In this document: in pieces, positions 97 through 63,808 of the stretch | How the letters are laid out: each line of letters begins with the position of its first letter | Numbering within the stretch: the stretch's first letter is position 1 | Source: Eledone cirrhosa | Taxonomy: Eukaryota | Assembly (NCBI GenBank): GCA_964016885.1 | Contig: OZ024742.1 | Location: 132,432,001-132,496,000 of the forward strand | DNA: 64,000 bases | Reading direction: 5' to 3' | Position numbers and translations under genes: made by a program | The notes under the pieces: generated by a model | The model's database searches: none | What the model was told of the DNA's origin: nothing | What the model saw: only the letters and a program-made list of their open reading frames with translations

Positions 97-530
97 TATT
101 ATTCAACATTTTTACAAATGGAAATATTCGCATAATTAAAATATATACTTTATTATATATATTTCAAAGGTACTGTGCTGTTTTTTTCAGTACGTCCTCA
201 TCAGACAAAATATATGATTTGATATACGACATACCACTACGGTCATGATTATTCTCTTCCCGTATTGTCAGAATTGAATAATCAAGACCGCAGCATTATG
301 TCATATATCAAATCATATTTTTTGCTGATGAACACGTAGAGAAAAAAACAGCACAGTACCTTTGAAATATTTACAATAAAGGATATATTTTTATTATGCG
401 AATATTTTGCGTTTGTTAACATTTTGAATAATATTAAAAACTCCAGGAAAACTAACTGTTGATTTCTTCTAACCTATTGTAAAACTGTATTCTTTGAGTA
501 ATCAACGAACCATATTAATCTTTGGTTATA
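97..530. mobile_element. Non-coding HHR-bearing repeat (family A), head-to-head inverted pair with 3' tail
   Basis: Imperfect inverted arms at about 97-255 and 275-433. The + arm continues to about 530 and resembles 27720-27940. Flanked by (TA)n. Confidence 0.75.
145..213 (-). ncRNA. Minimal type I hammerhead ribozyme motif (family A)
   Basis: Minus strand reads ATATTTTGT-CTGATGA-GGACGTACTG...CAGTACCTTT-GAAA-TATATA-TA-ATAAAGTAT. Stem I pairs and stem III is palindromic. A degenerate mirror copy lies at about 316-385 (+). Confidence 0.7.
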
Positions 531-672
531 TGTATGTATATATATATATATATATATATATATATATATATACATACATATAACCAAAGATTAATATGGT
601 TCGTTGATTACTCAAAGAATACAGTTTTACAATAGGTTAGAAGAAATCAACAGTTAGTTTTCCTGGAGTTTT
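437..672. repeat. Near-perfect palindrome centred on a (TA)n tract
   Basis: 437-540 is the reverse complement of about 570-672 (aaaactccagg...tatgta / tacata...cctggagtttt). Confidence 0.95.
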
Positions 673-727
673 ATATATATATATATATATATATATATAT
701 ACACATATATAACATATATATACACAG

Positions 728-950
728 TTGACATCCAGAGTTGACATTGCACTCAGTGCTCCTTTGGGAGCCCCTACATGGACACACTAGAAGAGGAAGA
801 CCAAGGTTAACATATGTTGATGCCCTAAGGACAGACACTGGTCTGTTGGAGATGCAGGATATGGCAGCGATAATGAGGGACAGAGACCGCTGGAGAGAAC
901 TCGTCCATGGATCTCGGGAATTTTACCCGCCTTAGATAGATAGATAGATA
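728..950 (+). mobile_element. 3' end of an RTE-clade non-LTR retrotransposon with (TAGA)n tail
   Basis: Peptide LLWEPLHGHTRRGRPRLTYVDALRTDTG...MRDRDRWRELV matches the RTE C-terminal RGRP..W/Y.D...DR..WR pattern. The stop is followed by tagatagataga. Confidence 0.8.
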
Positions 951-1246
951 CACATATATCTATATCTAAATACACGCACACACACATATATATATATATA
1001 TATATATATATATATATATATATATATATATATATATAAATATTTATTTATTTCTTTTTTATATTTATACTGTTGTAGAAAAATATACAAGGGAAAAACA
1101 CTCTGTCCATGTATATATGTATATATATATATATATATATATATATATATATATATATATATATATATATATATATATATATATATATATATATATTTAT
1201 ATATATATATATTTATATATATATATATATATATATATATATATAT

Positions 1247-1405
1247 ATTAAAATAACAGATTTAAGTTTAAGCAAAGAATCGCTGCTTTCACCCTTAACG
1301 GGATCTTCTGAAACACATATTTGCTCTACGATTGTTATATTTGATATATAATAATCCTTATCGAGCCCCCTTTGGATTGTTGTCTTCAAATTTATTATTA
1401 TTACT
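1247..1405. repeat. Rearranged fragment of family D repeat (CAGANGA HHR-like)
   Basis: 1247-1315 is the reverse complement of 8603-8668, and 1335-1405 resembles 8692-8760. Confidence 0.7.
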
Positions 1406-1713
1406 ATATAAATATATATATATAAAAACAAATAACGAAACGAAATTAAATTTCGTTTCGCTTCTAACTCACTTTTGTATGACTGACGCTTAAACAATTA
1501 AGTTAAAGTGTACATCTACATATGTATACGGAAGTATTAGTATGCATATAAATACACACATGTATACATATGTACATGTACTCAGCTTTTCACTAGACAC
1601 TTTACAGTGAGTGTCAGCTAGTCTGTATGTAACCACACAGGCGGACCGGGTTTTAGAGTCATACGAGTTTTCAAGGAAACACATTTCCTCTATTCCCCAG
1701 AGGGCCAGACAGG

Positions 1714-1758
1714 AATATTGGACTAGTTTCGATGTTATTACATCTCATCAGCAATATT
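1714..1758 (-). ncRNA. Minimal type I hammerhead ribozyme, canonical core
   Basis: AATATTG-CTGATGA-GATGT-AATA-ACATC-GAAA-CTAG-TC-CAATATT. Perfect stems I and II, palindromic ACTAGT stem III, GUC cleavage triplet. Confidence 0.92.
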
Positions 1759-2182
1759 TACCCATCTTCCGGCTTCTCTGGAGAATTGTAAAAGCACATA
1801 TCGTTATATGCTTTTTCTATGAAAATTAGTAGTGGGTAGACTAATTTGCATAGAACGTGAGTCATTGTACGCACCGGTTCAGCGGAAACGAAAAAAACAA
1901 ATAACGAAACGAAATTAAATTTCGTTTCGCTTCTAACTCACTTTTGTATGACTGACGCTTAAACAATTAAGTTAAAGTGTACATCTACATATGTATACGG
2001 AAGTATTAGTATGCATATAAATACACACATGTATACATATGTACATGTACTCAGCTTTTCACTAGACACTTTACAGTGAGTGTCAGCTAGTCTGTATGTA
2101 ACCACACAGGCGGACCGGGTTTTAGAGTCATACGAGTTTTCAAGGAAACACATTTCCTCTATTCTCCAGAGGGCCAGACAGG

Positions 2183-60625: not shown

Positions 60626-60862
60626 TATATATATATATATATATATATATTTAGGGAGAGAGAGAGAGAGAGTGAGAGAGAGATAAATATATATAGAGAG
60701 AGGGGGAGAGAGAGAGAGAGAGAGAGATAGATACAGAGAGAGAGAGAGAGAGAGAGAGAGAGAGAGAGAGAGAGAGAGAGAGAGAGAGAGAGAGAGAGAG
60801 AGAGAGACTATAAATTAAAAAGATAAGAAATACAAAATTGATCTTCATTATTACGTAATCGG

Positions 60863-60983
60863 TTTGAGTTCAAATCCCGCTGAGGTTAACTTTGCCTTTC
60901 ATCCTTACGGGGTCGATAAAATAAAGTACCAGTAATGTACTGGGTAATTGCTGGCCTTGTGCCTAAAGTAGAAACAATTATTA
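60863..60983 (+). mobile_element. 5'-truncated SINE with target-site duplication
   Basis: attattacgtaatcgg before and attattaagtaatcgg after. Confidence 0.85.
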
Positions 60984-62282
60984 AGTAATCGGCGGAATCT
61001 TCAGTCAGCTAATTATTTTTAAGGCTTATTCAAAAGGCTATTTTCAGGACCTACATAGAAAAGAACACCGAGAGTTAAATATGTTATGTAGCAGAATAAG
61101 AATGCTTTTCACAATTTCACAGTTCCATCAACAGCCCGAAAACATATATGTATTCTTTCTATCTATCTACTCTCCTATCCATCACTCTCACTCTCTCTCA
61201 CTTTTCCCTTCTTTCTCTCTCTATCTACCTACCTATTCATCTCTCTCAATTCTCTGTCGCTCGCTCTCTCTTTCTCTATCTCTCGCTTTATATATATATA
61301 TATATATATATATATATGCCGGGCCCTCAATCTATCTAACTATCTATATATACACCTATAACCCTACCCAAATCCATCCAAAATACGCTTGAAGGAAGAA
61401 GAATCATCATGGAAACGCTCAAGGAGGAACATTTAAAAAAGATGTTTATCATGAAGCTATTCACCGAAAAGTGTTTGTTTGAGTTTTGCTAGAGGTAACA
61501 ATTTTTGAGACTGCATCATATTTATTTGGCATATATTTGGTGAGTTTCAGATAAAATATTAATACACTATCGCCAGGTGTCTGTATGAAAATGTTAGCCT
61601 CCAACTGAATCGTTTAGTTAACAGATTAATATAAATATATATGCATACGAATACTAGCGAGGGCATGGCAGTGTGATTAATGAGTTCGCTTTGCAATCAC
61701 ATATTTTTGAGGTCTGTCCTGCAGCACTCGACCTCGTGCACATGTCCTCAACTCCAGACATCGATTGACCCATGCCATAAGTGGTATTTACATGTCTCCA
61801 TAATCACACCCCTAGATTCCAATCGCTTACTCTTGATAATTAGCAGCTTCTCTTACAACTAATACATGTCGACTATATATGCTCACTCCAATATTTCCCT
61901 TCACGGCACACCCTAATATTAACATACTTCTGCTCATAGCTTCGTACTTACATGCACAACTTACATGCACACATTATTTTACTCACAAATACACACACAT
62001 TTCTTCTTAGCTTCATACGGACGTATAATAACACACACACACACGCACAAACACACACACACACACACACACATACACACACACACACACACACACACAC
62101 ACACACACACACAAACACATGCTTACGTACGTGCTCAAGTATAGCTCTTTTTACAAAACGTATTTTTTTTCATTTCAGGTAGACGCGCTTTATCATCCAC
62201 TTTTATAAAGTATGAATCATACACAAAACGCTAGCACTAACATTTTTGCTAGAGAAGACAATCTATCTTATTCCTCATTCTT

Positions 62283-62314
62283 TTTTCTGATGAAGGGATA
62301 TCGTCCGAAACGTA
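62283..62314 (+). ncRNA. Minimal hammerhead motif truncated into (TA)n
   Basis: CTGATGA-AGGGA-TATCG-TCC-GAAA-CG-TA, then TA repeats. Confidence 0.55.
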
Positions 62315-62800
62315 TGTATATATATATATATATATATATATATATAGTAATAATAAATGTGAAGACAAAAAGTCCGAAGATGGATCGATAAGTATTGAAT
62401 GTATATCAAAAATATATAAACCCGTTCAGGGTGAAAGCACAGATTCTATTCTTAAACTTTAGTCTCTTCTGATAATATATGTATATATATATATATATAT
62501 ATATATATATATATATATATATATATATATATATATATATGTACACAGATGTAAACTTACTCATTGCGCATGCGTGCGATCTTTTGTTAGATTCAACAAT
62601 GTCTTCTTAGATGCACTTTACGCGATTTATTCTAATACAAGTAATACATATATTTTCAATGTGGAAAATATATTTTCCCATATTGTTATATTTTTGATAG
62701 TCACTTTGCCCATTTTGCCAATATAAGTTCATGTCAAGCAAGACTCTTTTTAAACCGATACATATACCACACACACACACACACATATATATATATATAT

Positions 62801-63525
62801 TATAGCTCTGGTATCTTCATATCCATAGAGAGCCTGTCTACACAATACTGATGTTGCGTTTCGCTAATTTCTAGCTGCCGAAATGCGATTCTCGCTAAAT
62901 TTATATTTGTATTAATCAAGCGACAAATCAAGCGATTAACCAATTTTTTGTTTAGGCTTTTTAGTTAATTCTATTGACTGACTAATCGCTTAAGTTTATT
63001 TTAAAAACAACACGCTCGAGAGCTTAATTCGTTTTGTGCTATTTTTGCAAATTTTTGCAATAGCTACACATGCTGAATTCACTGGCCAAAATAGGGGTTT
63101 TCTCCCCTTAGAACCTCACATGTGCTTCAATACCCTGTGAGATTCTGGCGCACGAAGAACAAAATGCCTGTTGAGAAAGCGATTCCTTGTTCGATCATTA
63201 TACCAAAAGCTTATTATTTTTTATAAGCAGACAGTATTATTGATTTAGGTGTTGCAGAAACCCTATATCGGAGTATTCCATCTTCCCCCAGGGTCCGGGT
63301 AACTATTTCAATCACATCTTATTTTGTTTGAGCCATTTAACTTGTTCGCATTTTTGACTCAGGTGGTTAATGGCTTCTTAACCATCATCTCAGTTTGTAT
63401 GACCTTTTTAACTTATGTTTATAGCTCTGATATCTTCATATCCATAGAGCGCTTGTCTACACAATACGGAAGTTGGGTTTCGCCAATTTCTTCCCGCCGA
63501 AATTCGATTGTCGCTAAATTTATAT
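62801..63525. repeat. Partial-tandem element with about 105-bp terminal direct repeats (period about 619 bp)
   Basis: 62801-62905 resembles 63420-63525. The interior resembles (inverted) 58975-59470. Confidence 0.7.
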
Positions 63526-63635
63526 ATATATATATATATTAAGTTGTTAAACGATATTTGATGATTATGTCAAAGAATGAGTTTTACAGTAGATTGGAAG
63601 CACTCAACGGTAAATAATTTTCAGGAGTTATTAAT

Positions 63636-63808
63636 AATAAAATATAAGTATTAATAAAATAGATGTTCTTTTGATGAATTACATTTTATTATACATATTT
63701 CGGATGTACAACAGTATTTTGTCTGATGAGGACGTACATACGAAATATGTATAATAAAATGTAATTGATCAAAACAACTTTTTTTTTATTAATACTTTTA
63801 TTTTAATA
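63636..63808. mobile_element. Short head-to-head pair of a family A relative; HHR at about 63715-63761 (+)
   Basis: TATTTTGT-CTGATGA-GGACGTACATAC-GAAA-TATGTA-TA-ATAAAATG. The left arm carries the inverted 3' half with TCC-GAAA. Confidence 0.75.

Follow-up and report, generated by a model that had tools for sequence, protein, structure and literature searches.

Inverted insertions with unequal ends among hammerhead-bearing Penelope-like elements of Eledone cirrhosa, probably formed by two-ended priming

Inverted pairs and coding frames

The stretch of Eledone cirrhosa DNA analyzed here (contig OZ024742.1, positions 132,432,001 to 132,496,000; 64,000 nucleotides, hereafter the window) is AT-rich animal DNA, in which pure dinucleotide tracts of at least 10 bases make up 11.5% of the length. 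It harbors inverted pairs of units that carry hammerhead ribozymes (HHRs), together with remnants of Penelope-like elements (PLEs); the arms of 14 pairs occupy 8.5% of the window (Table 1). All 11 inverted pairs listed in the original prediction were recovered by self-BLAST (L1 to L11, numbered from left to right in the window), with arm identities of 87-100% and spacers ranging from 0 to about 2.9 kb. That list was correct but incomplete. The 25 local rows of the self-BLAST reduce to 21 distinct inverted repeats, of which 10 are firmly head-to-head (nine listed pairs and 28052-28728), four are probably so, one is tail-to-tail, and six could not be oriented.

Orientation was assigned by HHR motifs as markers of the sense strand, a use supported at 11716, where the core is on the coding strand of a PLE-like element, behind its GIY-YIG-like frame. 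In a scripted scan for type I HHRs, which was relaxed because stricter versions lost motifs with an open base in stem II, motifs with an intact core form 20 rows at 18 distinct places, compared with 0-1 in each of 10 local shuffles. When 18 pairs (11 listed and 7 unlisted, including three of the six unorientable repeats) were scored in both directions against 30 shuffles each, nine of the 11 listed pairs exceeded all shuffles head-to-head and none did so tail-to-tail. The predicted polarity, with 3' ends facing outward, holds for these nine pairs and is probable for the other two. In L5 (19470-19911), the HHR candidate is weak, and 4 of 30 shuffles match its head-to-head score; in L8 (32207-36380), the scan gives no orientation, with scores of 6 head-to-head and 7 tail-to-tail. 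L8 is read as head-to-head because the enclosed frame runs toward the left arm and is truncated, at about residue 50, exactly at the right arm, and because the left arm bears a decayed HHR on its coding strand. Interpreting its right arm as a sense 5' repeat, which would make the pair tail-to-tail, is disfavored by the lack of an N-terminal coding piece in either arm (best E 0.07) and further by the decayed HHR. The original description of both arms as HHR-bearing units needs qualification for three pairs, which have a core in a single arm (1424-2440, 8338-8676, and 63634-63809). The window count of one tail-to-tail against 10 firm head-to-head pairs agrees with the expectation that the two arrangements are not equally frequent.

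A core beginning with CAGA instead of CUGA occurs in the HHR-like motifs at 8607, 1310, and 28632. It is fixed in the abundant family represented by 8377-8762, whose putative HHR also has a longer helix III.

Three remnants of reverse transcriptase (RT) genes are present, all on the minus strand; the longest alone matches Pfam (RVT_1), and the others were recognized by motif or by a weak tblastn match. The longest frame, which lies inside L8 and is the only coding frame enclosed by any of the pairs, aligns from 35737 to 33618 with residues 50-754 of a 754-aa relative; it is collinear through the end of the GIY-YIG domain and lacks the first ~50 residues. Its RT is 58% identical over 501 aa to that relative, its GIY-YIG domain contains two internal cysteines and downstream histidines, many of the related proteins carry PF01541, and those that are named belong to molluscs. 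By its motifs, the element would be of the Neptune type: the part of Craig 2021 (PMC8557442) used here assigns a CX2-5CxxC linker and a GIY-YIG domain of CCHH layout to Neptune, and a related linker to Nematis. An RT plus a C-terminal GIY-YIG domain in one frame, a type I HHR, an inverted 5'-truncated copy, and a one-sided tail identify endonuclease-bearing PLEs in the window. The proposed PLE origin of the units is supported by the frame inside L8 and the HHR on the coding strand at 11716; the original reading of microsatellites as targets is likewise supported.

Two decayed PLE-like frames of another type (11784-13331 and ~23200-25090, both on the minus strand) have a CxC-containing linker before the GIY-YIG-like part. 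The truncated element at 11519-13440 was considered as an inverted pair and dropped, because the plus-oriented piece at its 5' end bears no real likeness to its 3' end. Neither the RT nor a DNA motif of the family, used as queries, gave a match in collections of metagenome contigs and genome contigs. Among sequencing runs, none contained half of the query words (shares below 0.2 were disregarded as evidence), and no RNA run contained the stretch searched for. At a relaxed threshold, the 150 of 251 Rfam rows considered comprise microsatellite matches to miRNA models and two weak HH9 matches; spurious miRNA matches are produced by short palindromes centered on TA tracts, some of which are purely (CA)n(TA)n(TG)n.

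Table 1. Coordinates of repeats, coding frames, and sequence signals in the window
Feature	Position	Arm identity and spacer	Details
L1	97-526	87.3%; 21 nt	Minus arm 97-254 (core 204), plus arm 276-433 (core 325); 93-nt tail 434-526 on plus arm; (TA)n on both sides
L2	1424-2440	98.8%	Minus-strand tandem (1.8 copies) of an HHR unit of 469 nt, cores 1751 and 2220; right piece 2278-2440, inverted, 163 nt, without HHR
L3	8338-8762	100% over 39 nt; 261 nt	Minus arm of 39 nt stops at inner site B; plus arm reaches outer site A (8756) and contains an HHR variant (core CAGAAGA, 8607)
L4	9117-10455	95.9%	Partial tandems of a 442-nt HHR unit in both arms; HHR cores on minus (9431) and plus (9758, 10200); site A at left arm end, site B at right arm end
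L5	19430-19911	98.6%; 0 nt	221-nt arms (19470-19911), TA-rich center, 40-nt left extension
L6	20113-20326	90.5% (20113-20266); 5-nt center	Minimal HHR in both arms; ~60-nt right extension
L7	28748-29765	92.2%	L4 family; HHR cores on minus (29241) and plus (29529); left arm reaches site A and is split by a dispersed repeat of 190 nt (28840-29026); site B at right arm end
L8	32213-36380	98.5% (32213-36345); ~2.9 kb	~630-nt arms, decayed HHR, 35-nt right extension; encloses RT/endonuclease frame
L9	46287-46744	94.9% (46377-46744); 16 nt	Cores 46476 (minus) and 46645 (plus); 90-nt left tail homologous to L1/L11 tail
L10	58318-58933	99.3% (58455-58933); 189 nt	145-nt arms, cores 58565 (minus) and 58823 (plus); 137-nt left extension
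L11	63541-63809	89.5% (63634-63809); 24 nt	Left arm with 93-nt tail, without HHR core; right arm with core (63723), without tail
Unlisted pair	3879-4071	Perfect 57-nt arms (3956-4071); 2-nt center	Probably head-to-head; 77-nt left tail confirmed by copy at 56420-56544
Unlisted pair	27985-28728		285-nt arms, cores 28148 (minus) and 28632 (plus), 67-nt left extension; head-to-head
Unlisted pair	36420-36762	93.2% (36420-36706)	Decayed HHR-like motif, 33-nt right extension; weakly head-to-head
Inversion without duplication	1249-1403		Head-to-head; minus piece = family 8603-8668 (HHR variant 1310), plus piece = tail 8673-8760
Mixed-family locus	27552-27936		Minus piece of L6 family with inner-site end, 59-nt hairpin, plus piece of L1/L11 family (HHR 27742, outer-site end); no target DNA between the two pieces
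PLE frame	33618-35737		Minus; RT, C-x4-C-x2-C linker, GIY-YIG; one stop, one frameshift
5'-truncated PLE-like element	11519-13440		Minus; RT and GIY-YIG-like frames by eye from motifs, no Pfam match; HHR core 11716 on coding strand; plus-oriented tail-like piece (~13300-13440) joined to 5' end
Unoriented inverted repeats	26745-27542, 27651-27709, 30513-30564, 40011-40140, 41386-41427, 45713-46251
HHR-type units without inverted homologous partner	2596-2879, 22167-22470, 8885-9100, 27173-27396, 36945-37187, 60339-60626, 62270-62470
Short TA-centered palindromes	5107-5192, 16062-16143, 30513-30564, 40011-40140
SINE-like dispersed repeat	3474-3864, 28840-29026, 48487-49000, 53512-53908, 56569-56771, 60865-60983, 40609-40763, 8074-8224, 44616-44771		~190-200 nt, often tandem, beside TA tracts; one copy splits L7 left arm
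Compound TA/GA tracts	8285, 20005, 29845, 30218, 32160, 36789, 47187, 60650
YGAGTNMT (examples)	3931, 13387, 19334, 20287, 27873, 30282, 33335, 46355, 55500, 58397, 63606
ATGCAAAT	1844, 2386, 9512, 10112, 29322, 37180

Unequal ends and strand-changing joints

In most pairs, one arm extends beyond the other before it reaches a microsatellite. Wherever a second copy permits a check, the extension consists of element sequence, and the ends are fixed at an inner site B and an outer site A. One arm ends at A and the other at B in all eight homology-checked cases (L1, L9, L11, L3, 1249-1403, L4, L7, and 3879-4071), the outer end lying 60-95 bases past the inner. A one-sided extension of 29-137 nt is also present, without confirmation by homology, in L5, L6, L8, L10, 28052-28728, 36420-36706, and 45713-46251, and one repeat outside the checked cases (26745-27542) is nearly symmetric. 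The symmetric two-ended event of the original prediction does not agree with arms that begin at different RNA sites in every case checked.

Outer ends at (TA)n or (GA)n had been predicted for most arms; 13 of the 22 listed arm ends directly adjoin a microsatellite, against a background of 3.8% of positions. The other nine do not adjoin a microsatellite; in eight of them, an unduplicated extension of 35-141 nt intervenes. Each of the 11 listed pairs has at least one arm end at a microsatellite, and in L6 both 3' ends enter (TC)n and then (TA)n in sense orientation.

Two features of the tails and tracts were observed besides. All eight compound TA/GA tracts share the same polarity, (TA)n followed by (GA)n on the GA strand, which could reflect repeats added during priming or else be common to compound microsatellites in general. 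The motif YGAGTNMT occurs in the tails of unrelated families and has 30 matches in the window; a microsatellite lies at most 80 nt downstream in 19 of these and upstream in six, a comparison that is partly circular in that the motif was derived from some such tails. It may represent a tail signal recognized by the protein.

Reads of the 8377-8762 family were aligned at 85% likeness in two raw runs of restriction-site-associated DNA (RAD) sequencing and two contig sets; about 16,500 reads per raw run map to this single 386-nt unit, out of 12.5 million reads. They exit into TA-rich sequence at 8676 (2338 and 2507 reads in the two raw runs) and again at 8756 (1088 and 1062 reads), which confirms both ends in numerous copies of the family. 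A third exit at 8725, into different sequence, is seen in ~1000 reads per raw run, and in ~750 reads per raw run the tail is preceded, at 8675, by a single different upstream sequence (agreement 0.91). Some copies of the family seem to contain a tandem sub-repeat, as indicated by a joint between 8487 and 8377.

Among the 15 joints listed out of 91, ten change strand. Read rightwards, the shorter side ends exactly at 8676 in four of them (8646+31, 8641+36, 8632+45, and 8651+26); one further joint has this end at 8672 and another at 8750, the RAD end, while four could not be assigned. None of the ten links two 3' termini. Six begin at 8602-8613, around the core at 8607, and in five the second piece begins at or beyond 8672 and at most five bases are duplicated, which makes the product an inversion and not a palindrome. 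Nine of the ten are found in both raw runs, which come from one study and one library type (one joint with only two reads in the second run), and three are present in contigs of a third run; this recurrence argues against chimeras. An inversion without duplication is also found in the window at 1249-1403, where the two pieces share no sequence and are separated by a 4-nt gap in family coordinates. The description of the system as a systematic palindrome generator is overstated and holds only in part: half of the listed strand-changing joints duplicate five bases at most, single-arm copies exist, and the palindrome at 431-678 has the opposite polarity.

Proposed priming from both target ends and its alternatives

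The inverted pairs are probably (with a probability of about 0.68) ordinary insertions of endonuclease-bearing PLEs, and of non-coding HHR units using the same machinery, that arose by two-ended priming with separate cDNAs. The RT/GIY-YIG protein would cut both strands within a (TA)n tract, and each of the free 3' ends would then prime on element RNA at one of the two observed ends, one at A and the other at B, 35-140 nt upstream. Both cDNAs would proceed toward the 5' end of the RNA, usually stop early and often near the HHR, and become joined at the junctions that are observed. The 3' ends face outward because priming would always begin near the 3' end of the element. A palindrome would result only if the cDNA from site A passes site B into sequence copied by the other cDNA; otherwise, an inversion lacking any duplication would be produced. 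For at least one insertion, different template copies would have given rise to the two cDNAs.

The evidence for separate templates comes from the differences between arms. At three columns covered by all four units of L4, the two right units share one letter and the two left units share a different one; with L7 as the outgroup, both right units carry the derived state at two further sites, and no column groups units across the two arms. These arm-specific haplotypes would most simply be read as the product of two templates, or of one long RNA copied in two stretches far apart. The arms of L11 are not fold-back copies of each other, since each holds sequence that the other lacks (the tail and the core, respectively). 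At 1249-1403, both arms require an outside template because the pieces share no sequence, and the same applies to five of the ten strand-changing joints listed. The locus at 27552-27936 suggests that two different RNAs were joined in one event; the alternative is two insertions followed by a deletion. The originally proposed copying of two cDNAs from RNA, which are then joined, has support from the inversions without duplication and from the L4 haplotypes once its symmetry is given up, with the joining as a postulated step.

Several observations weigh against this interpretation. No target-site duplication is seen by eye at L2, and ends elsewhere sit in microsatellites, a difficulty that is also reported in the cited part of Craig 2021 (PMC8557442). 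L2 departs from the A/B pattern and is outside the eight checked cases, and its right end lies outside a microsatellite and away from the usual end of its family; L8 is compound, as it contains a tail piece from a different family (~33290-33388, plus orientation). The probability of the A/B pairing under free choice per arm (P 0.001-0.004) refers to sites defined from the same data as those tested. The polarity of the read joints is deduced from the length of the shorter side, and 76 joint rows lie outside the list. The L4 signal amounts to about two independent mutational events plus two sites polarized by a single outgroup, and conversion between tandem units would give the same haplotype split. 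Five listed pairs have a spacer of at most 24 nt, L5 has none, and 3956-4071 has almost none; for such pairs, fold-back is the simplest fit. The appearance of L2 and 1249-1403 is that of twin priming on a single RNA, which speaks against one mechanism for all. Finally, a tail-to-tail palindrome around a 56-nt TA tract (431-678) adjoins L1.

Fold-back self-priming, in which the 3' end of one cDNA folds at a short palindrome, copies itself outward, and stops where AT-rich sequence pairs with the opposite end of the target, is an unlikely explanation for the pairs as a whole. It has been published for the PLEs of A. vaga (PMC3846280), predicts the one-sided tail as well, and would account for the centers of 0-5 nt at 19470-19911, 3956-4071, and 20113-20266; the sequence at the inner sites B is rich in AT, and annealing to (TA)n would be possible there. 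However, fold-back cannot yield 1249-1403, L11, the five non-duplicating joints, or the L4 haplotypes. Small spacers can also result from shared stops near the HHR: the arms start 50 and 49 nt before the core in L1, 8 and 9 nt in L6, and 76 and 76 nt in L9, although such equality holds by construction in palindromes, and six of the ten listed read joints likewise begin near the core. Fold-back may account for a minority of the pairs, and more than one route may operate.

Twin priming is the route by which LINE-1 elements form head-to-head inversions: both target ends prime cDNA on one RNA, the second at a chance internal site, and no duplication arises. The inversion polarity is alike here, but the second site does not vary and duplications are frequent. 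For the PLEs, the second target end would anneal at site B of the same RNA, and duplication would require strand displacement or a multimeric RNA. The strict pairing of A with B follows naturally from such a scheme, the gap of 4 nt at 1249-1403 suits it, and so does L2, where, in unit coordinates, the right arm's outer end shares 11 nt with the left arm's inner end. It is nonetheless likewise unlikely as the prevailing route, given that the arms of L4 differ as haplotypes while overlapping by ~116 nt in unit register and that 27552-27936 apparently joins two families. What separates priming on one RNA from priming on separate templates is solely how many RNAs take part, and the two routes may coexist.

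Later rearrangement of the inserted DNA without the element's enzyme, by hairpin repair or template switching at (TA)n, is a very improbable cause of the pairs. Such rearrangement predicts (TA)n centers and no link to polarity, whereas most pairs have centers of element sequence, outer (TA)n, and fixed outer sites. The short palindromes at 30513-30564 and 40011-40140 are indeed TA-centered, as is 431-678, which is much younger than L1. Its right arm (583-678) is an inverted copy of the L1 tail alone (97.9% identical), and its arms differ at 2 of 96 positions, whereas the divergence between the arms of L1 predicts ~12 differences (P 4e-4). Judging from this divergence, the palindrome at 431-678 is younger than L1; it is of local origin, either by DNA fold-back at the TA tract or by re-insertion from a transcript of the locus. 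An assembly or library artefact (fold-back chimeras) is the least probable of all: several arms are 98-100% identical and the read support covers joints of the 8377-8762 family, not the 11 listed junctions, but arm identities span 87-100%, one arm of L7 contains a dispersed repeat, and most of the listed opposite-strand joints (9/10) recur at the same base in two raw runs, with 3/10 in third-run contigs.

Tandem units, known systems, and significance

L2, L4, L7, and the unit at 36945-37187 form one family of tandem-type HHR units; L2 and L4 each contain two consecutive HHR cores. With non-coding tandem units and a predicted type I HHR, they resemble non-LTR retrozymes (units of 150-450 bp), the 469 nt of L2 lying slightly above that range. 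In this family of 442-469 nt, ATGCAAAT is invariant ~75-95 nt upstream of the HHR; across the whole window it is not enriched (9 found versus 6.5 expected). It resembles the octamer of snRNA-type promoters.

Non-coding tandem units with type I HHRs (L2, L4, L7) are shared with the animal non-LTR retrozymes, as far as the sources consulted describe them (PMC7229834; bioRxiv 10.64898/2026.07.22.740005). The units described here differ in lying in inverted insertions with a one-sided tail; the words "inverted" and "microsatellite" are absent from the main text of PMC7229834. It is this insertion anatomy that apparently ties the tandem HHR units to the PLE machinery. The minimal type I HHRs of PLEs (PMC4209133, in the part cited) share the type I topology, the palindromic loop 3, and a variable stem II with the motifs predicted here, one family of which has a CAGAAGA core and a longer helix III. 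The same source reports pairs of HHR motifs 100-700 bp apart on opposite strands in Schistosoma.

Inverted PLE insertions as such are well documented. In the portions of the literature cited, Arkhipova 2013 (PMC3846280) describes head-to-head as the arrangement "most frequently observed" and suggests that self-priming takes place on an antisense template; Craig 2021 (PMC8557442) reports an inverted 5'-truncated copy, a tail at one end only, and a bias for (TA)n, and treats the formation of these structures as an open problem; and a curation guide (PMC8969392) lists inverted pseudo-long terminal repeats (pLTRs) as a routine feature. The polarity rule is therefore already known and needs no new biology, whereas the mechanism originally proposed is plausible and gains some new support once it is made asymmetric. 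The insertions in the window share with inverted-pLTR insertions in these papers (PMC3846280, PMC8557442) the inverted 5'-truncated copy, the head-to-head arrangement, junction palindromes, a one-sided tail, and microsatellite targets that hide duplications. They differ in having tails of 60-140 nt besides those of 30-40 nt and in that many pairs are non-coding stubs of less than 500 nt; non-duplicating inversions and arm-specific haplotypes, which are unmentioned in the portions cited, argue against self-priming as the sole route. Twin or two-template priming was not found for PLEs in literature searched by title and beginning of abstract, a scope that leaves aside older reviews and supplements, where it may already be in print.

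In vitro, the protein of PAc, a Poseidon element of Anolis carolinensis, cuts and extends both strands of AT-rich DNA and is predicted to form a dimer (Frangieh 2024, PMC11167929). Two adjacent start sites of reverse transcription, spaced by the length of the tail, are common to PAc and the insertions in the window. In PAc, the start sites do not differ between the strands and inverted insertions are not treated, whereas the arms start at different sites in 8/8 checked cases here, and the element in the window has a zinc-finger linker of the Neptune type. It is tentatively conceivable, though on balance doubtful, that PLE integration is intrinsically two-ended and asymmetric, with a dimer that holds two RNAs, starts at A and B on opposite strands, and joins the cDNAs, and that this supersedes self-priming as the main explanation. 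If so, the inverted copy, the one-sided tail, the non-duplicating inversions, and fusions of two families, such as 27552-27936, would be products of one mechanism. A genome with many high-copy families provides a test bed for the open step of PLE integration. Retrozyme-like tandem units would be linked to PLE enzymes, and much of the supply of short palindromes in an animal genome rich in microsatellites would be explained.

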